This document shows positions 7,498 to 62,549 of a stretch of 64,000 bases of DNA, piece by piece (the stretch's first letter is position 1; each line of letters starts with the position of its first letter). The notes below the pieces were generated by a model. It had not been told where the DNA came from. It saw only the letters and a program-made list of their open reading frames with translations, and ran no database searches. The position numbers and the translations under genes were made by a program. Source of the DNA: Desulfovibrionaceae bacterium (GTDB lineage Bacteria; Desulfobacterota; Desulfovibrionia; Desulfovibrionales; Desulfovibrionaceae); NCBI GenBank assembly GCA_050251715.1, contig JBFWMG010000005.1, positions 139,766 through 203,765 of the forward strand, read 5' to 3'.

Positions 7498-8637
7498 ATG
7501 CGCATTGAGCAACGAGCGTGGACCAGGGAACAGGGATGGACGGAACCCGGAACGGATCCCCTCCTGTCCGCGCCCCAACTCGTCCTGGTCTTCGGTGCGG
7601 GCCAAGCCCTGGCCGACCCCGCGCTCCTGCGCGCTGTGGAGGCCATGTACCCCGGCGCGTTGCGCTTCGGCTGCTCCACTGCCGGAGAAGTCGACCGCGA
7701 CGTGGTGCGCGACGAATCCCTGGCGGTCACGGCGGTGCGTTTCGACCACACCACCATCGCCAGCGCGGCGTGCGACCTCGACGCGTGCGGCGACATGGCG
7801 GCCACGGGCAAGGCCATCGCCTCAAGGCTGCCAAGGGAAGGGCTCCGGCACGTTCTCCTCCTGTCCGACGGACTGCACGTCAACGGCACGGCCCTGGCCA
7901 ACAGCCTCATGAAGCACCTGCCGCCAGGCGTGACCGTGACCGGAGGGCTGGCGGCCGACGGGCCGCGTTTCCAGCAGACCCTTGTGCTGCTCGGCGACGA
8001 GGCCCGGCCGCGCATCGTGGCCGCCGTGGGCCTGTACTCCGATCGCCTGCGCCTGGGGTTCGGTTCGCGCGGCGGCTGGGATCCCTTTGGCCCCGAACGG
8101 ATCATCACCCGGTCGCGCGGCAACGTGCTGTACGAGATGGACGGCGGCTCCGCCCTCGCCCTTTACAAAAAATATCTGGGCAAGCATGCCGCGGGCCTGC
8201 CCGCCACAGGCCTGCTTTTTCCCCTGAGCCTCAAGGGTGACGACTCGGACGCGGATGGCATGGTGCGCACCCTGCTTGCCGTGAACGAAGAGGATCAATC
8301 CATGACCTTTGCGGGCGACATGCCCGAAGGGAGCCGCGCCCGGCTGATGAAGGCCAACCTTGACAGGCTGGTGGACGGGGCGCACCGTGCGGCTGTGGAA
8401 AGCCTGGACGGGCTTGACGGCATGACGCCCGCGTTTGCCCTCTGCATCAGCTGCGTCGGCAGAAAGCTCATCATGAAGCAGCGCGTGGAAGAGGAGGTGG
8501 AAGCCGTGCGCGGCGTGTACGGCCCGGATGCCGCCATTGCGGGCTTCTATTCCTATGGCGAGATATCCCCCACCCCCACCGGAACCTGTGGGCTGCACAA
8601 TCAAACCATGACCATCACCACGTTTGCCGAAATATGA
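7498..8637 (+). CDS. FIST domain sensor protein
   Basis: ATG at 7498 follows an AAGGAGA RBS. The 379-aa product shows FIST_N/FIST_C-like features (LVLVFGAG..., FGCSTAGEV, FYSYGEI). Its stop overlaps the start of the downstream kinase (ATGA at 8634-8637). Confidence 0.8.
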   Translation: MRIEQRAWTREQGWTEPGTDPLLSAPQLVLVFGAGQALADPALLRAVEAMYPGALRFGCSTAGEVDRDVVRDESLAVTAVRFDHTTIASAACDLDACGDMAATGKAIASRLPREGLRHVLLLSDGLHVNGTALANSLMKHLPPGVTVTGGLAADGPRFQQTLVLLGDEARPRIVAAVGLYSDRLRLGFGSRGGWDPFGPERIITRSRGNVLYEMDGGSALALYKKYLGKHAAGLPATGLLFPLSLKGDDSDADGMVRTLLAVNEEDQSMTFAGDMPEGSRARLMKANLDRLVDGAHRAAVESLDGLDGMTPAFALCISCVGRKLIMKQRVEEEVEAVRGVYGPDAAIAGFYSYGEISPTPTGTCGLHNQTMTITTFAEI

Positions 8638-10436
8638 GCGACGCGCACCACCACCGGCTGCTGCTGCGGCAAATCAAGAAGCACCTCGGCTCTCCGGAGG
8701 ATATGCCCGAGCCTTTGCAACGGTTTATCGCCGCGGTCGACGAGGCGTACAGGCAGTTCGACGACGACCGGGAAATGGTGGAACGCTCCCTGGAATTGAG
8801 TTCCCAGGAGCTGCTGCACAGCAACGCGGCGTTGCGCGCCGTGTTCAGCGCCTTCACCGACACCTTGTACTGCTGGATAAACAGCGACAATGTGGTGACC
8901 CGCCATACGGCGGGGTTTGCGCAGCATCTGGGCCAGGCGCAGGGCTCGCTGGCGGGCCGCCCGCTCCTTGAGGCGCCGCAGCGGGATCTGGCCATTCTGT
9001 TTGCCCACGCCTTGCGCCGGGTGCGCCAGCGCGGCAAGCATGTGACCATTGAATACGCCAACGCCAGCAAGGGGGGCGACCGTTCCTATGAGGCGCGGCT
9101 TGCGCCTTCCCTGAACAACGAAATCATCGTCATCGTCCGCGACATCACGGACCAAAAACGGGCGGAAACCGCGCTGAAGCGGGCGCTGGACGACACGGAG
9201 CGGCAGGTGTCGGCCCGCACGGCCGAACTGACCCAGTCCAACCAGCTCTTGCTGCAGGAGGTGCTCGACCGCAAGATGGCCGAGACCAAGCTCGCGGAAA
9301 GCGAGGAGCGGTTCCGCAAAATAACAGCGGCGGCCCACGACGGCATCATCATGGTGGATGATGCGGGCCGCATTTCCTTCTGGAACAATGGCGCCACCTC
9401 GATTCTGGGCTTTTCCGTGGACGAGGCCATGGGCAAGGACGCCCATGGCCTGCTGCGTCCGTTCAAGGATGCCAAACCCCTGCACAACACCTCGCTCTGG
9501 GGCGCTTCCAACGCCACGGGCATGGAGCCCGGCCGCACCCTGGACCTGACCGTGAGCAACAAGCAGGGCACATCCATTGCCGTGGAAGTCTCCATTTCCT
9601 CCGCGGCCATCAAGGGACGGTGGCATACCGTGGCCATCATCCGCGACGTGACCGCGCGCAAGGAGGCCGAAGAGACGCTGCAAAACGCCAAGCGCGCCGC
9701 CGAGGAAGCGAACCAGATCAAGTCGGATTTCCTGTCCATGGTGTCGCATGAGTTGCGCACGCCGCTCACCGCGGTGCTCGGCTTTGCCAAGATGATTAAG
9801 AAGCGGCTGGTGGATACGGTCCGGCCCAAGGCGGAAGCCGGGGCGCCCGTTCCCCTCAAGGCGCTGGGCCAGATGGAGGCCAATATCGCGGTCATCGTGT
9901 CCGAAGGCGAGCGGCTCACCGAACTCATCAACAACGTGCTTGACCTGGCCAAGTTGGAGGCCGGGCGCTTCGAGTGGTCCATGCGGCCGCTCGGCCTGGA
10001 CTCGGTCATCGAGCAATCCCTGAACGCCACGGCCATCCTGTTCCGCGACAAGAATCTGCGCCTTGTCCGCGACGTGCCCGCAGACCTGCCCCATGTGCAG
10101 GGCGACAAGGACCGGCTTGTGCAGGTGTGCATCAACCTCTTGTCCAACGCGGCGAAATTTTCCTCGCACGGCACGGTGTATGTGAGCGTCCGCCGATCGG
10201 TGGACAACCTTGTCGTGTGTGTGCGTGACGAAGGGGTGGGCATCCGGGAAGAGGACAACCAGGCCGTCTTCGACAAGTTCAAGCAGCTTGGGGATACGCT
10301 CACGGACAAACCCAAGGGCACCGGCCTTGGGCTACCCATCAGCAAGGAAATCGTGGAGCACCATGGCGGCTCCATGTGGGTGGAAAGCGCCCAGGGACAG
10401 GGCAGCGCCTTTTATTTCAGCCTTCCCATCCTATAG
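8634..10436 (+). CDS. cytoplasmic PAS-domain sensor histidine kinase
   Basis: 600 aa with no TM segments and with PAS regions. It has the HisKA H-box SHELRTPLTAVLGF and HATPase N/G boxes (NLLSNAAKF, GTGLGLPISKEIVEHHGG). It is translationally coupled to the FIST gene. Confidence 0.9.
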   Translation: MSDAHHHRLLLRQIKKHLGSPEDMPEPLQRFIAAVDEAYRQFDDDREMVERSLELSSQELLHSNAALRAVFSAFTDTLYCWINSDNVVTRHTAGFAQHLGQAQGSLAGRPLLEAPQRDLAILFAHALRRVRQRGKHVTIEYANASKGGDRSYEARLAPSLNNEIIVIVRDITDQKRAETALKRALDDTERQVSARTAELTQSNQLLLQEVLDRKMAETKLAESEERFRKITAAAHDGIIMVDDAGRISFWNNGATSILGFSVDEAMGKDAHGLLRPFKDAKPLHNTSLWGASNATGMEPGRTLDLTVSNKQGTSIAVEVSISSAAIKGRWHTVAIIRDVTARKEAEETLQNAKRAAEEANQIKSDFLSMVSHELRTPLTAVLGFAKMIKKRLVDTVRPKAEAGAPVPLKALGQMEANIAVIVSEGERLTELINNVLDLAKLEAGRFEWSMRPLGLDSVIEQSLNATAILFRDKNLRLVRDVPADLPHVQGDKDRLVQVCINLLSNAAKFSSHGTVYVSVRRSVDNLVVCVRDEGVGIREEDNQAVFDKFKQLGDTLTDKPKGTGLGLPISKEIVEHHGGSMWVESAQGQGSAFYFSLPIL

Positions 10437-10551
10437 ATATTAATAATCCATCCCTGCCATGCCTATTTAATTTTTCTATTTACCTTTATATGCCCCTTTT
10501 TTATTGTATACTCTAATCGGGCACCGAGAACCGCGAGAAAAGGACGACGTC

Positions 10552-11250
10552 ATGCCCAGCCAACAAACTGAACAACCCCGCGATGTTGACGCCACGCCAT
10601 CGTTGCGCGGAGAAACGCCGGCCCTGGACATGCAGATCGGCGCCAGGGTACTGCTGCAACTCCAGGACACCGGGGAAAAGCTCTGGGGCGAGACCGTGGG
10701 CATGGTGCAGGACAAGTTTATCATCATCCGCATTGCGACCAATCCGGCCATCCGCCAGGCGCTGCAACCGGAAACCCCCGTGGCGGTCCGCTATGTGGTG
10801 CGCGACTGTTTGGTCTTCGGGTTCACGGCCACTGTGGCCAGGCTTACGACCAACCCCTTGCCGCTGCTGTATCTCCACTTCCCTGCGTCGGTGGAGACGG
10901 CCAACCTGCGCACGCATCACCGCGTCTGCTGCTACCTCCCGGCCACGCTGTTTCTCGAAGGGCAGGAGGTGCATGGCGCATTGGTGGACATTTCCCGTGG
11001 CGGATGTAGAATATTGGTGAGCCACGCCAATGACACCCAGGCGGTGGAGGCTCCCGTGGACACGGAGGTCTTCTGCCAGCTGAACATTCTGGGCGATGAC
11101 GGGGCGCTGTTTCTCAAGGGGGTCGTAAAAAAAAACACGACCTCGGGTGACAAAACCATGCTGGGCGTGGCGTTCGACGACATCACCGAAGAGGCTGCGG
11201 CGCACATCGAGCGGTATGTGCAATGCGTGCATGAGCTGTCCGACCTGTAG
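10552..11250 (+). CDS. PilZ domain protein (YcgR-like c-di-GMP receptor)
   Basis: ATG at 10552 follows AAGGA. The PilZ signature is intact: RTHHR (RxxxR) and DISRGG (DxSxxG). An N-terminal PilZN-like region is present. Confidence 0.75.
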   Translation: MPSQQTEQPRDVDATPSLRGETPALDMQIGARVLLQLQDTGEKLWGETVGMVQDKFIIIRIATNPAIRQALQPETPVAVRYVVRDCLVFGFTATVARLTTNPLPLLYLHFPASVETANLRTHHRVCCYLPATLFLEGQEVHGALVDISRGGCRILVSHANDTQAVEAPVDTEVFCQLNILGDDGALFLKGVVKKNTTSGDKTMLGVAFDDITEEAAAHIERYVQCVHELSDL

Positions 11251-20972: not shown

Positions 20973-21009
20973 AAAAGGGTTCGCGCCGTAGCGGCGCGAA
21001 CCCTTTTTT
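20973..21009 (+). terminator. intrinsic terminator ~210 nt downstream of tkt
   Basis: AAAA-GGGTTCGCGCC-gtagc-GGCGCGAACCC-TTTTTT. A second hairpin, GGCAGC...GCTGCC, lies just upstream. Confidence 0.7.
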
Positions 21010-49667: not shown

Positions 49668-49704
49668 AAAAAAGGCCCGCTCCTCTCGGAGCGGGCCTTT
49701 TTTT
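49668..49704. terminator. bidirectional intrinsic terminator between parA and the antisense Cys-rich gene
   Basis: AAAAAA-GGCCCGCTCC-tctc-GGAGCGGGCC-TTTTTTT. Confidence 0.8.
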
Positions 49705-52281: not shown

Positions 52282-52365
52282 GGCTCAACCAGCAGCCCGC
52301 GCACGCCACAAAACCCTTGAGCTTGCGATTTTCGTTGCCCGTTGCGGCCAAACCGCAAGACCTCA

Positions 52366-52381
52366 TGTTTCATGTGAAACA
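52366..52381. promoter_or_regulatory. parS: parS-like centromere site
   Basis: TGTTTCATGTGAAACA matches the parS consensus at 15 of 16 positions. It lies in the hldE-downstream spacer, about 1.2 kb from the parB end. Confidence 0.7.
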
Positions 52382-52471
52382 TACTGAAAGGATTGGTTGA
52401 ATACCAATAAAAGCCGTTAAACAGGAATGTTACAGACGCCCGCCCACTCTCGTCGGCAACAGGGTACCGCC

Positions 52472-52870
52472 ATGAGCATCTTTCAACGCATTGCAGAAGA
52501 ACGCATCCAAAATTCCATCCGCAACGGCGCATTCGACGACCTGGACGGCGCGGGAAAACCGCTGGCGCTCGATGACGACAGCATGGTGCCGGAAGACCTG
52601 CGCATGGCGTACAAGATGCTCAAGAACGCCGGATTCGTCCCGCCCGAGATAGCTGACGCCAAAGAAATTCGGTCCATCGTGGACATGCTCGAAACCTGCC
52701 AGGACGAAAAAATCCGCTTCACCCAGATCAAGAAACTGGGACTGCTGCTCGCCAAAACCGCCCAGCATCGCAACCGCGCCGTTGTCCTGGACGAAAACTC
52801 GGACTACTACCGCAAGGCCGTGGCGTGCCTGTCCGTGGCGGCCCAGACAAAGACAGCCGGTTCGCGCTGA
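52472..52870 (+). CDS. DUF1992 (DnaJ-like subfamily C member 28-type) domain protein
   Basis: ATG at 52472. IAEERIQNSIRNGAFDDLDGAGKPL...LKNAGFVPPE is the typical DUF1992 signature. Confidence 0.75.
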   Translation: MSIFQRIAEERIQNSIRNGAFDDLDGAGKPLALDDDSMVPEDLRMAYKMLKNAGFVPPEIADAKEIRSIVDMLETCQDEKIRFTQIKKLGLLLAKTAQHRNRAVVLDENSDYYRKAVACLSVAAQTKTAGSR

Positions 52871-53965
52871 CACCATCCAACATCCCGCCCTCCCCTGCGC
52901 GGCCAAAACAGGTGCGCAAAAAACGAACCACGCCTACCAGCCTCATGCCCTGCTTCTCCCTGTCCATGCTCCCATGCTCCACTGCCCCCGCGCACATGGC
53001 ACCGTGTCGCCCAACGGTCCCCTGCCGCACGCGCCCATGGGGGCATCACAAACCGATCGCCAGGTCGAGCGACCCGAACCCGACACATTGCCCACCCGGA
53101 TCAGCATGCCGCCGCACAAATCATGGACGGCATCATACCGTCACCTTCCAAAATTCCCACGCGTGAGCCCCCCCGAAACGCGTCAGGCACCCATAGGCAC
53201 CCAACCTACCAGCACCTCCTCCAGCTTCTGTGTTCTCGTTCCACAGCAGCCGATCACACGCCCAGATCCATCCGACGAAAACCACACTCAAGCCATCGGC
53301 CGAGAACATCGGGGCCGACATGATTCCCGACCGAAACTATCGAGTACCCGTCACGTCGCCCACAAAGACGAAATGGCCAGGCGGACACCAGCGCCTCCTG
53401 CGTGCGTCTCTTGTCCCAATCCCCCAGAAGGGATCCCGGCCCCAAACCGCCCTCGCCTCTTCCTGCGCATCGCTGACCCATGGATCACACCGCACCCTAG
53501 AATTGAAATGCCCTCACCCATCCCAGACCAGGCAGTCTTCACATCCGTCCAGCCCTCCATCCTCATCCACTCCGAAATCATCGCCCTCTCGCCTACACGT
53601 TACGCATGCCTCCCAGCATGGCCGTTGGTCTGCCATGACCAACCTCCCCTTCATCAACCTCGCACCATGGGTCAAGCCATCGGTCGATACCACGATCTCG
53701 CTTTTGTCATTTCTTAGGCTTTGCCCGGATCCCTCTTTTTGCTCGTGATGGCAGTTCTTGCCGACGTGGGCCTGCAACGCGCTGAAAATAGACCTTCCAC
53801 AACCCACGCGCGGGCATCATATATCGGACAACCCGAAACAGGACGGTCGCAGGCATCACGGCCACGGGTAGTCGCCCCCAACACCCTCGATTTCGCGCGG
53901 AAAGGGGGTTTTCCGGGGTGGAAGGCGTGGACGCGACCAACGGGTCGATTTTTGAAAAATAACGG

Positions 53966-59460: not shown

Positions 59461-60717
59461 TTATTTGGCACGGATGGCGGCAGCCAGTCCGTTGTGGTCG
59501 TTCAGGGGCAGGGCGACTTGCTCACCCGACTCCATGTGTTTGGCAATGATCTGTCCAGCCGCCAGTTCGCTGCCGCCCAGCAGCAGGCAATGGCGCGCGC
59601 CCAGCCGGTTGGCGGCGCGCATGTGGCTCTTGAGGCTGCGGGCGTTGTAGGCCGCCTCGCCTTCCAGCCCGGCGGCACGCAATTGCTGGGCCAGCGCCAT
59701 GCCGGTTTCCAGCCCGGCGGCGTCGATGACCGCCATATAGAAATCCAGGGTCTTGGCCGGGCGCGGCGGCAACAGCAGGGCCAGGCGCTCCATGCCGCAG
59801 GCGAATCCCGTGGCGGGCACGTCCGGGCCGCCCAGCTGCTTGATGAGCCCGTCATACCGCCCGCCACCCGCCACGGCGGTCTGCGCCCCAATATTGCCCG
59901 ACACCACCTCGAAGGTGGTACGGATGTAATAGTCAAGGCCGCGCACCAGGCGGGGATTGAGGGTGTAGGGCAGGCCGCAGCGGTCCAGCACGTCCTTGAC
60001 CGTGGCGAAATGGTCCTGGCACCCCGCGCACAAGGTGTCCGTGATCCTGGGCGCGTCCTTGGTCAACTCCTTGCACGCGGGCACCTTGCAGTCCAGCACG
60101 CGCAACGGATTGGTATCCATGCGGCGGCGGCAGTCCTCGCACAGGGCGTCGCGGTCAATGCCCTGGAAAAAGACGCGCAAGGCATCGTGATAATGCGGCC
60201 GGCATTCGCGGCACCCCAGGGAATTCAACTCCAGGCCCAGCTCGGCCAGGCCCAGCTCGCCCAGAAACGCCCACAGCATGAGAATGAGCTCGGCGTCGGC
60301 ATGCGGCTCGTCCGCGCCGATGATCTCGGCGTCGATCTGGTGGAACTGGCGCATGCGCCCCTTCTGGGGCCGCTCGTAGCGGAACATGGGGCCAAAGGTG
60401 AACAGCTTGGAGGTCTGCCCCTCGGCGTGGCGCTTGTTCTCGATGAACGCACGCAAAATGCCCGCCGTGGCCTCGGGCCGCATGGTCAGCGAACGGTCCT
60501 TGCGGTCCGGGAAGGTGTACATCTCCTTCTGCACCACGTCGGTTTCCTCGCCGATGGAGCGGGCAAACAGCTCGGTCTTTTCCAGGATGGGCACCCGGAC
60601 CTCATCGTAGCCGTAGCGGCCGAACACGCGCCGCGCCGTGGCCTCCAGAAAGGTCATGGCGTCGCTGTCAGGCGAAAAGAGGTCGGCAAACCCTTTGATT
60701 TTGGTAATGTTGCTCAT
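59461..60717 (-). CDS. hisS: histidine--tRNA ligase
   Basis: 418 aa from the ATG at 60717. KGFADLF, the class II motifs ([25 protein letters not shown]) and the C-terminal anticodon-binding domain are present. Confidence 0.95.
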
Positions 60718-60830
60718 GATCCAATTTCGATATTTGGGGAATTTCCGGCGCGGAAGCACGCCGCCGAAGCGGTTCTGCATAGGACATTGAAGGGACAATG
60801 TCAAAACAGGGTAGACGCGGGGAAAAGGAG

Positions 60831-61275
60831 GGAAACGACGGAAGATTTCGCGCTGCGCGCGACCAGGCTACGCGCATCTCTGCTCTCGATATCCGTAAGG
60901 TTCGCTTTGCTCACCTAACGGCTAGTCGGCTGGACTGCGGCAGCGCAACGGCGCTGCACCCGTTTAGGCGGATGAGAACGCGGGGAAGGCTGGCGTGACG
61001 GCGCGATGAGAGAGTGAGAGAGGACGGCGTGGTCGGCAGGCGCGGTTGGCCCTCAGTCCAGACTTGGCAAAGAAAAGGTGGGGTTCGGCGGGATGGGAAA
61101 ACGATCTCCCATCCCGCCGAACCCCACCTTCACGTTATCAATTCCGCACTGCCCCCCATGGGGGGTAGCGACCCCTGCGAGGCTCCGCCCCATACCCCGG
61201 CCCGTGCTGGCGCAGAGAGTGGGGGAAAGAACAAAGCAAAAGAAAGGTTGTTTTGAGGCTGTGCACTCACTATGC
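60831..61275 (+). repeat. left arm of ~855-bp imperfect palindrome (structured non-coding element, copy 1)
   Basis: Aligns with the reverse complement of 61276-61685. Shared blocks are GAAGATTTCGCGCT, CTGCACCCG..TAGGCGGATGAG, GCGCGATGAG, CCTCAGTCCA and ACTGCCCCCAT. It contains a perfect 24-bp-stem hairpin at 61075-61130. Confidence 0.8.
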
Positions 61276-61685
61276 GCATGGCAGAAGCGGGTCAACCGCG
61301 TTTTCAGAACTCCTTCCATCTATCCCGTGTGCCTTGCCGACCCGTTTTCTCCCCCTCCCCCATACAACCGGGAACCGGGGTTTGGGGCGTAGCCCCAATG
61401 GGGGCAGTTCACCATTGATGAAAAGGGGTTTCGGGGCAGCGGGAGGTCGTTTTCCCGCTGCCCCGAAACCCCTTTTTCTTCAAGAGTGGACTGAGGCGCA
61501 CGCACGCCTTCCGCTACCACACCACCGCCACCCTCACCTTCACCTCTTCCCAACCTCATCGCGCCGCAACGTCTGCCCTGCCCGTAACCTCATCCGCCTA
61601 CTCGGGTGCAGGGGCGTGCCCCTGCCGAGGTCCAGGGCGAGCAGCCCTGGTCGCGCGCCAGCGCGAAATCTTCACGCCGTTTCTG
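61276..61685 (-). repeat. right arm of ~855-bp imperfect palindrome (structured non-coding element, copy 2)
   Basis: Mirror copy of the left arm. It contains a perfect 24-bp-stem hairpin at 61421-61476 followed by TTTTTCTT. The symmetry centre is the 8-bp palindrome ATGCGCAT at 61272-61279. Confidence 0.8.
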
Positions 61686-61702
61686 CCAGCCCTACCGAAT
61701 CG

Positions 61703-62437
61703 CTACGACGTTTCGGCAGCCGCGTCGAACGCCAGTAGCGGCGTCAGTGGTTTGCCGCCCACCAGGTCGATGCGCACGGCGCCGTAGGCGCCCACGAGGC
61801 CGAAGCACCAGGGTGCGTTGATCCAGTTCCAGGGCGGGCGGTCGCGCCAGGTCCATTTGGGGCCGGGCAGGGTGGTCTTGAAGGAGGTGGGCAGGGTGCC
61901 GAGCGCCTGGGTGATGAGCCGCCGCATGGCGCATGGCGTGTACCAGCGCGCCGAGCGCATCATGCCCCGCCGCAGCAGGGGCAGGCGCATGCCGTTGCCC
62001 ACGTAGTAGCAGGAGTTGCGGTTCAGGAAGGAGACGAGGATGCCTTTGCGGGTGACGCGGCGTGCTTCTTCGAGCACGCGCACCGGGTCGTCCACGTATT
62101 CCAGCACGGTGAGCAGGGCGGTGTAGTCGAATTCGTTGTCGTCAAAGGGCAGGCAGTCGGCATGGCCCACATGCAATCCGGCGCGGTCGCCCATGCGTTC
62201 CCTGGCCGAGCGGATCATGGCCTGGGACTGGTCGATGCCGGTCACGTCAAAGCCGGATTCCCAAAACGTCTCCAGAAAAAGGCCGGAGCCGCACCCTATT
62301 TCAAGGAATCGCTGGTCCCGCCTGGGCCATTCGGCCACCAACCGCTCCAGCAGGGTCCGTTCGCGCGTGAAGGCAAAGCGTCCCGTAGGCGTGGTGTACC
62401 ACGCCTCATAGCGTCGTATGGCCGTTTCGTCCCACAC
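61703..62437 (-). CDS. class I SAM-dependent methyltransferase
   Basis: 244 aa with a GTG start after GAGGAG. The SAM motif is LEIGCGSGLF, with the downstream motif VTRKGILV. Confidence 0.8.
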   Translation of the reverse strand: MWDETAIRRYEAWYTTPTGRFAFTRERTLLERLVAEWPRRDQRFLEIGCGSGLFLETFWESGFDVTGIDQSQAMIRSARERMGDRAGLHVGHADCLPFDDNEFDYTALLTVLEYVDDPVRVLEEARRVTRKGILVSFLNRNSCYYVGNGMRLPLLRRGMMRSARWYTPCAMRRLITQALGTLPTSFKTTLPGPKWTWRDRPPWNWINAPWCFGLVGAYGAVRIDLVGGKPLTPLLAFDAAAETS

Positions 62438-62549
62438 AGCGACTCCTCATGGCTCACGCCCGACCCGTCGCCCAACGCCCCTTTGACGGTTTCATGCGCA
62501 TGCGCACGGTCCGGGCCAGGACATTGTCCGGCCCGGACCGGCAAAAGCG

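Follow-up and report, generated by a model that had tools for sequence, protein, structure and literature searches.

Organization of the inverted repeat upstream of hisS

We analyzed a stretch of 64,000 nucleotides (the window) from an uncultured Desulfovibrionaceae metagenome-assembled genome (assembly GCA_050251715.1, contig JBFWMG010000005.1, positions 139,766 to 203,765), and in particular a large inverted repeat that lies upstream of its hisS gene. The spacer that hosts this repeat measures 974 bp and separates two genes of the minus strand, hisS (ATG at 60728, as placed by translation; its product is MGE4297469.1) and a gene for an S-adenosylmethionine-dependent methyltransferase (stop codon at 61703, assigned by Pfam). 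In this gap, a left inverted-repeat arm of about 375 nt (IR-L, 60831–61205) aligns with the reverse complement of 61370–61685, a right arm of about 315 nt (IR-R) that was supported by alignment, blastn, and shuffles. Between the two arms lies a unique central spacer of about 165 nt (61206–61369).

When the left arm (plus strand) was aligned with the reverse complement of the right arm using MAFFT, the mean column identity was 76%, and blastn of one arm against the other gave E = 4e-18 over 252 nt together with a 38-nt terminal block at 92%. The arm-to-arm inverted blocks (I1, I9, and I13) were also recovered by a repeat search of the window. Among ungapped columns, 255 of 365 were identical (70%), and the alignment contained 125 gap columns, 64 transitions, and 46 transversions, giving a Kimura two-parameter (K2P) distance of 0.40. 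Judged by their sequences, the arms are an old duplication. Homology of the left arm was significant for 60831–61074 and 61131–61210 (p = 0 in shuffles), and the longest identical run between the arms was 29 (p = 0.002). Identity was not evenly distributed along the arms; it amounted to 92% and 88% at the outer termini (the two outermost bins of 25 columns) and fell to about 50% toward the center. The alignment placed about 52 extra nucleotides in the left arm, in agreement with the roughly 50 that the original prediction, made from the sequence alone, had noted. The arms also differ by a 16-nt indel, and an excess of C over G is retained in both. Within each arm, direct repeats containing GATGAG were found (D1).

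The best-conserved parts of the arms are their terminal blocks. The left one (60832–60867), GAAACGACGGAAGATTTCGCGCTGCGCGCGACCAGG, contains a small hairpin, TCGCGC-TGC-GCGCGA, and was delimited by column identity and by the blocks I9 and I13; the right one (61646–61684) is its inverted copy, found by the repeat search and by alignment, with 19 nt between its end and the stop codon of the methyltransferase gene. In inverted orientation, the terminal ~36–39 nt are 88–92% identical. These blocks are themselves partly palindromic, as seen in TCGCGC-TG(G)C-GCGCGA and CTGG(T)CGCGCGCCAG.

The region had been described originally as an imperfect palindrome of about 855 bp, folding back on itself around the perfect 8-bp palindrome ATGCGCAT (61272–61279), near which two divergent transcripts would start. 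All the blocks and hairpins quoted in that description were located in the sequence at exactly the positions given, with the perfect hairpins re-found, and the inverted, diverged arms at 70% identity were borne out, but the central ~165 nt were not homologous. Inverted homology in 61205–61370 did not exceed chance (Smith-Waterman score 14 versus 14.4 ± 2.6 in shuffles, p = 0.6); the locus therefore consists of IR-L, a unique spacer, and IR-R, rather than of a fold-back to a point. Because perfect 8-bp palindromes occur in the window at 0.34 per 100 nt, ATGCGCAT is a chance-level palindrome and not a meaningful center. The GC content of the spacer was lower, at about 55–56% in 61200–61349, and reading its plus strand revealed a purine-rich left half and a pyrimidine-rich right half.

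Terminator-like hairpins and their paired changes

One long hairpin is carried by each arm. The left hairpin (61066–61130, minus strand), identified by terminator scan, perfect-stem search, and folding, has a 24-bp perfect stem at 61075–61130 and the U-tract CCUUUUCUUUGCC; the right hairpin (61413–61486), identified in the same three ways, has a 24-bp perfect stem at 61421–61476. The window contained seven perfect hairpins with a stem of at least 11 bp, and these two were the longest. In the terminator scan, 7 terminator-like sites were returned, as compared with 1.7 ± 1.3 in shuffles, and all of them fell on the two long hairpins. The left hairpin scored as an intrinsic terminator on the minus strand only, with the tail CCUUUUCUUU and with no U-tract on the plus strand, and the right hairpin scored on both strands, with the tail UUUUUCUUCA on the plus strand and UUUUCAUCAA on the minus strand. 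The scan was thus in accordance with the earlier view that both hairpins resemble intrinsic terminators with U-tracts on the strands pointing outward, and it added the second strand of the right hairpin. On these scores, the left hairpin is a predicted intrinsic terminator for leftward read-through from the methyltransferase gene toward hisS.

The 24-bp stem lengthens to 26 bp on the outward RNA strand. The 8-nt loops gain two pairs on the outward strands only (GAUCGUUU and GGUCGUUU), leaving a UCGU tetraloop, and the sole loop substitution converts an A-U pair to G·U on the outward strands and produces a mismatch on the inward strands. With imperfect pairing, each long hairpin can be extended to about 45 bp per side.

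Elsewhere in the window, perfect 16-bp hairpins between an A-tract and a T-tract were observed at 20973–21007 (AAAAGGGTTCGCGCCG/CGGCGCGAACCCTTTT) and 49668–49703 (AAAAAAGGCCCGCTCC/GGAGCGGGCCTTTTTT), and these look like typical bidirectional intrinsic terminators of the host genome. The right long hairpin and these two share the design of an A-tract, a G-rich stem, and a T-tract, and the 24-bp hairpins appear to be oversized versions of the bidirectional terminators of the host.

Two further kinds of hairpins occur in both arms. The outer hairpins, found by folding, are GCAGCGC-aacg-GCGCTGC (60940–60957) and CACCCG...CGGATG (60957–60974) in the left arm (60940–60974), and CATCCG...CGGGTG (61591–61608) and GCAGGGGC-gt-GCCCCTGC (61608–61625) in the right arm (61591–61625); CACCCG...CGGATG reaches full pairing, with one G·U, on the outward strand only. 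The small hairpins, which were read from the sequence and were paired in the predictions, are CCCCCCATGGGGGG (61152–61165) and GCCCC-aatg-GGGGC (61392–61405).

The claim that three hairpins had been kept by paired changes withstood recounting. Between the two 24-bp stems, 9 of 24 positions are different, and pairing is perfect in each, with nine both-side changes counted by RNAalifold; the outer hairpin contributed two both-side changes between the arms, and the small CCCCC/GGGGG hairpin one more, as read from the sequence. Altogether, 12 stem pairs were changed on both sides and none was broken, and in the three local hairpins all 36 of 36 stem pairs were Watson-Crick in both arms, without any G·U. 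It has been described that template-switch mutation at quasipalindromes turns imperfect inverted repeats into perfect ones (PMC7202029). Since template switching yields the same pattern, compensatory changes in short perfect palindromes are no proof of selection on RNA. The perfect compensation is therefore real, but by itself it cannot separate RNA selection, selection for termination on two strands, and a mutational bias at the DNA level.

Pairing over longer distances was also considered. The full minus strand can be folded as a single giant structure (dG −528 kcal/mol, z = −16). G·U-compatible transitions, however, showed no significant strand bias (26 on the plus strand and 38 on the minus strand, p = 0.17), and a selected arm-to-arm RNA pairing or giant fold-back was rejected on this ground. 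A predicted long-range helix, CTGGAC...GTCCAG, has 10 of 11 pairs in the left arm versus 7–8 of 11 in the right arm as counted from the sequence; lacking compensatory change and being weaker in the right arm, it was rejected as well. The demonstrably constrained features are the local palindromes, above all the two outward-facing terminators.

C-rich tracts and promoter-like sites

Just downstream of each terminator, on the outward strand, composition analysis identified a C-rich, G-poor tract of about 100 nt. The left tract (60960–61050, minus strand) has a C/G ratio of 2.65, and its best 78-nt window reached 3.08, above the 99.5th percentile of the whole 64 kb (2.60); the right tract (61497–61600, plus strand) has a ratio of 4.2, and its best 78-nt window reached 4.8, above the 99.9th percentile (3.3), with a GC skew of −0.5 to −0.63. 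The two tracts accordingly fall in the top 0.1–0.5% of all 78-nt windows. In composition they resemble Rho-utilization (rut) sites, which suggests that they might load Rho.

A relaxed sigma-70 scan of 60700–61760 returned a single match, TTGACA-17-TATGCA at 60804→60776 (60776–60804, minus strand), a promoter-like site for hisS that lies outside the repeat, between it and the hisS ATG. The site is contained in a block of 44 nt for which the nearest relative (GCA_015709205.1; locus L081) has a counterpart of 84% identity in the same position; a similar block, TTTTGACAT-N-TCAATG, is present in a further relative (L082), and the −35 element and spacing are conserved in both. Given its position between the repeat and the ATG and its conservation in relatives, the repeat lies upstream of the hisS promoter. 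This spoke against the earlier suggestion that the minus-strand copy could serve as a leader or attenuator of hisS, the promoter-like site being downstream of the repeat. Inside the repeat, neither a sigma-70 site at 8/12 or better nor a sigma-54 site was found on either strand. The only candidate in the center, read by eye, was a weak TTGACC-15-CATAGT on the minus strand (61296→61270). The center, being neither homologous between the arms nor provided with a good sigma-70 or sigma-54 promoter, did not hold up as a symmetry point or as an origin of transcripts.

In the hisS leader of L081 (5855–5945), three tandem repeats of about 26 nt, GGCCTGGTCGCCCGCGACCGCAGTTC, follow the conserved promoter block and precede the hisS ATG, and every repeat encloses a GGTCGC..GCGACC palindrome. 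Their resemblance to the CCTGGTCGCGCGC part of the terminal blocks in the window is weak (78% over 37 nt, E = 0.075).

Coding potential and known RNA families

No match to Rfam was obtained for the whole window at the gathering threshold, in agreement with the original prediction, which had recognized no standard RNA. When 60000–62500 was searched at E ≤ 10, the only matches were eukaryotic or viral microRNA (miRNA)-type hairpin models on the long stems; they were far below their thresholds and were dismissed as generic matches to long hairpins, to which the imperfect ~45-bp extensions give rise. Sub-regions without the long hairpins gave nothing or noise, and the window contained no tRNA or transfer-messenger RNA (tmRNA). 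The locus is not a member of any Rfam family.

None of the ten open reading frames (ORFs) of the region was present in a collection of 15 billion proteins, and the 161-aa ORF had no homologues. The inward ORFs of the two arms were unrelated (E = 0.97). A single frame runs open through the hairpin in the left and the right arm alike, with 45% identity over 42 aa, so the earlier statement that no ORF is conserved between the arms required this amendment. Substitutions in this shared outward frame, however, were distributed 11/9/13 over codon positions 1/2/3, indicating that the shared frame reflects DNA homology and not coding. With no third-position bias and no database homologues, a protein-coding gene or pseudogene was rejected, and the non-coding nature of the region, as originally proposed, stood. 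The region is non-coding.

Distribution of the repeat and a partial third copy

In a comparison with 5.8 billion protein clusters, the best HisS match had 72% identity to that of the window, so that this lineage is one without a sequenced close relative. In the nearest relative, L081, the gene order methyltransferase-hisS-aspS-def-fmt is the same, the spacer is 224 bp long, and 13 nt separate the methyltransferase stop from the promoter block. No arm homology was found in L081 or L082. The syntenic site of L081 is without the repeat, which is in keeping with the idea, raised originally, that the palindrome is an insertion at hisS, but at 72% HisS identity this relative is too distant to polarize the event or to provide a true empty-site comparison. 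A large inverted repeat was present within 1.5 kb upstream of hisS in 0 of 25 Desulfovibrionales loci. A scan of genome collections with HisS yielded only relatives at ≤66% identity, and blastn and nhmmer detected no arm copies in the 100 loci fetched. Nor did phages and viral contigs contain any arm match, and a 57-nt plasmid match (E = 2e-3) was taken as chance. Literature searches on Desulfovibrio miniature inverted-repeat transposable elements (MITEs) or small RNAs (sRNAs) brought up nothing relevant.

A scan of Joint Genome Institute (JGI) metagenomes with the pattern TGCACCCGNNTAGGCGGATGAG retrieved 18 contigs, namely, 17 near-identical soil contigs and one unrelated contig. They were rejected as homologues, because the similarity spans only ~28–45 nt and about 1–4 chance matches are expected by our own estimate for 20 specified bases in ~1e12 positions. 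The soil contigs (L083 and L085–L100) form a near-identical intergenic family in their own right, which follows a gene for a membrane protein and is convergent with one for a small protein rich in Gly and Tyr. The hairpin of this family has a compensated variant (GCCAC..GTGGC versus CTAC..GTAG); the family has no Rfam match, and the 28–45 nt that it shares with the arm block CTGCACCCGnnTAGGCGGATGAG were judged to be chance.

The search for further copies within the genome itself covered the 64-kb window, where no second full arm copy was detected. Instead, a segment of the left arm that is largely missing from the right arm (60870–60915, plus strand) has a second copy at 2819–2864. The two are 83% identical over 42 nt by blastn (E = 1e-6), their Smith-Waterman score was 50 as compared with 19.9 ± 2.5 in shuffles, and the pattern of the segment occurred twice in the window versus 0.01 occurrences expected. 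A weaker collinear similarity, extending to ~2900, matches the CCTCGGCAGGGG block of the right arm (p = 0.006–0.017; three-way alignment). This partial third copy (2818–2900, ~46–90 nt) comprises a 46-nt core, CGCGGCATCCCTGCCCTCGATATCCGCACGGTGCGCGTTGCCCACC, followed by GGCGGCCCGCCCCCTCGGCAGGGGGC, and lies 58 kb away from the repeat. Its host spacer (2755–2994) is flanked by genes for a phospholipase-D-like and a zinc phospholipase-C-like protein, and a promoter-like site for the second gene, TTGGCA-18-TATACT, lies downstream of the copy. The sequence of this copy suggests a dispersed short intergenic repeat in the host genome, and at least part of the arm would therefore belong to such a repeat.

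Other features of the window

Upstream of the methyltransferase gene lies a gene for an ilvD/edd-type dehydratase, and hisS is followed by aspS. Just after the ORF 8634–10436, a sharply AT-rich spacer of ~115 nt (10437–10552; tagatattaataatcc...ttattgtatactctaatc) stands out from a genome that is otherwise 65% GC and looks like a promoter or regulatory region. A stretch of ~1.7 kb (52282–53965) between a pfkB-family kinase gene (plus strand) and rsmB (minus strand) contains long ORFs without a Pfam match and is strongly C-rich on the plus strand around 53380–53620 (C/G up to 4.4). It has no similarity to the inverted repeat and represents an orphan gene or else another large region that is non-coding.

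Discussion

The locus is a real and non-random orphan, and most likely an unremarkable insertion of a repeat with terminators, specific to this lineage, rather than a new RNA class. We tentatively favor, with a confidence that falls somewhat short of even, a lineage-specific, repeat-derived inverted duplication that places outward terminators between the methyltransferase gene and the hisS promoter. According to this reading, two old copies of an intergenic unit of ~320–375 bp would stand head to head with ~165 nt of unique DNA between them, and each copy would provide a very stable hairpin, a U-tract on the outward strand, and then a C-rich, G-poor tract. The locus would most likely function as a transcription stop and insulator. 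Leftward transcripts from the methyltransferase gene would encounter the right hairpin, the left hairpin, and a Rho-loading-like tract before the hisS promoter, while rightward transcription would be stopped at the right hairpin before it could enter the methyltransferase gene in antisense. The hairpins would thereby terminate transcription in vivo, and the C-rich tracts would load Rho. The unit probably arrived through insertion or duplication of a genome-specific dispersed repeat of a MITE- or BIME-like kind (BIME, bacterial interspersed mosaic element), not purely by a local snap-back, and the perfect stems may have been kept by selection for termination on two strands, by template-switch correction of quasipalindromes, or by both.

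Several known systems resemble the locus in part. As in intrinsic terminators, including bidirectional ones, the hairpins have a G+C-rich perfect stem, a short loop (within the 3–8 nt allowed for terminators), and a U-tract; unlike in those, the stems of 24–26 bp with extensions to ~45 bp are much longer than usual and sit within duplicated sequence of ~350 nt, which a terminator would not require. Like MITEs and foldback elements (e.g., Correia and ERIC/IRU), the repeat is non-coding and shorter than 1 kb, its arms are best conserved at the termini, where inverted repeats of ~36–39 nt with 88–92% identity are found, it is missing from the corresponding spacer of the nearest relative (one too distant for a strict empty-site comparison), it bears signals for transcription, and part of it is found again 58 kb away. 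It differs from them in having no target-site duplication, no further complete copy within 64 kb or the collections searched, arms that are 30% diverged with many indels, and no known cognate transposase. The flanks (...AAAAGGAGG / element / TGCCAGCCC...) share no common direct repeat, although an old insertion could have lost one. The foldback or MITE-like option raised in the original prediction received some support from the absence from the syntenic site of the nearest relative, the conserved termini, and the partial copy 58 kb away, but it lacked a target-site duplication and a full extra copy.

Repetitive extragenic palindromic (REP) units of Escherichia coli and Pseudomonas measure ~20–40 nt, occur in tens to hundreds of near-identical copies, and are linked to REP-associated tyrosine transposases (RAYTs); REP, BIME, and REPIN sequences often act in termination or mRNA stabilization. 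The locus shares with these the palindromic units in opposite orientations, mixed with short motifs and placed intergenically after stop codons, whereas only two 56-nt palindromic units, differing at 9 of 24 stem positions, are present in 64 kb. The locus seems to work like intrinsic or bidirectional terminators inside a MITE-, BIME-, or REPIN-like mosaic repeat, and its membership in a repeat family is unproven, because no target-site duplication and no transposase were found and the copy number comes from 64 kb only.

Certain observations weigh against the insulator reading itself. The 24-bp stems with their imperfect ~45-bp extensions far exceed what termination needs, and the ~250 nt of homology beyond each terminator, which include the best-conserved terminal blocks, have no role in the model. 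In the 64-kb window there was no full extra copy, and neither a target-site duplication nor a transposase was found. Termination, moreover, is a prediction of the scan and folding, and the nearest relative, at 72% HisS identity, is too distant to date or polarize the insertion.

Among the alternatives, it is possible, though improbable, that the repeat encodes two divergent paralogous sRNAs of ~190–210 nt that start in the central spacer, carry CU-rich 5′ parts and a common 3′ module of small G/C hairpins and a long terminator, and end at the outward terminators. Small RNAs derived from 3′ untranslated regions (UTRs) and divergent paralogous sRNAs have been reviewed (PMC9438474); comparably, the right arm lies in the 3′ region of the methyltransferase gene and ends at a terminator, and outward transcripts would share a 3′ module, but here no promoter or processing signal was identified and there were no homologues. 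The outward U-tracts of both arms, the loop-closing G·U and A-U pairs gained on outward strands only, and the pyrimidine-rich outward strands on both sides of the spacer (e.g., UUUCCCCCACUCUCU and UUUUCUCCCCCUCCCCC) are consistent with such RNAs, as is the weak minus-strand site at 61296→61270. The candidate transcripts also folded far better than shuffles (z = −7.9 and −6.8), but these z-scores were dominated by the terminator hairpin. Furthermore, the putative RNA bodies were the least conserved parts (~50%, not above chance), with the best-conserved parts beyond the terminators, and the repeat contained no sigma-70 site of at least 8/12, no sigma-54 site, no Rfam match, and no homologue in the collections searched. 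More broadly, we consider it rather unlikely that the arms belong, as functional paralogues, to a family of RNAs or mobile elements that is not yet described and restricted to this deep-branching lineage of Desulfovibrionaceae, whether as a divergent pair of ~200-nt CU-rich sRNAs with a common 3′ module and an unusually long terminator or as a new foldback-type non-autonomous element whose outward terminators and Rho-loading tracts would make it a portable insulator. The minus-strand copy might instead lie in the hisS 5′ UTR and sense histidine or tRNA-His, as the left terminator facing hisS and the giant fold of the whole minus strand would permit; this we regard as exceedingly improbable, since the conserved promoter-like site before the ATG leaves a leader of only ~40 nt, no T-box or other leader family was matched, the relatives are without the repeat, and the mirror copy faces away from any gene.

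An explanation at the DNA level would be a local snap-back (template-switch) inverted duplication of the methyltransferase 3′ UTR and terminator that decays neutrally, its short palindromes being functionless and kept perfect only by quasipalindrome template-switch correction. Inverted duplication and short palindromes that stay perfect are indeed what tandem-inversion and snap-back duplications with quasipalindrome switching show (PMC7202029 for the correction). The right arm begins 19 nt after the methyltransferase stop, with its hairpin as a predicted minus-strand terminator for that gene, the 36 of 36 Watson-Crick stem pairs without G·U are as a DNA-level mechanism predicts, and no long-range helix was compensated, CTGGAC...GTCCAG being weaker in the right arm. 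A snap-back junction, however, should start out identical at the center, whereas here the center is non-homologous and at chance and divergence is least at the outer ends (~90% identity); a local duplication also leaves the partial arm copy 58 kb away unexplained, and the C-over-G asymmetry persisted in both arms despite sequence turnover and the 16-nt indel. We thus judge this origin to be unlikely. Still less credence, and indeed very little, is given to a site acting at the DNA level (for instance, an array of protein-binding palindromes, a cruciform, or a recombination or origin-like site), with the blocks and hairpins bound as double-stranded or extruded DNA. The perfect Watson-Crick palindromes, the near-identical and partly palindromic terminal blocks, and the GATGAG-containing direct repeats within each arm would suit it, but arms of 70% identity around a unique spacer of 165 nt will not form an extruded cruciform, the adjoining genes (those for the dehydratase and methyltransferase, hisS, and aspS) include no recombinase, replication, or partition gene, and plasmid or phage similarity did not go beyond the one 57-nt chance-level match.

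As a caution, one cannot conclude from the twelve "compensatory" changes that an RNA structure exists, since they lie in short perfect palindromes, where template switching of DNA gives the same pattern. The locus would matter more if its arms were expressed sRNAs or an active foldback element; as a repeat-derived insulator, it would be useful for annotation and establish no new principle. If the insulator reading is true, the locus would clearly exemplify how an intergenic repeat can supply terminators together with Rho-loading-like tracts, and it would separate two co-directional genes which in the nearest relative are apparently adjacent without a terminator between them.

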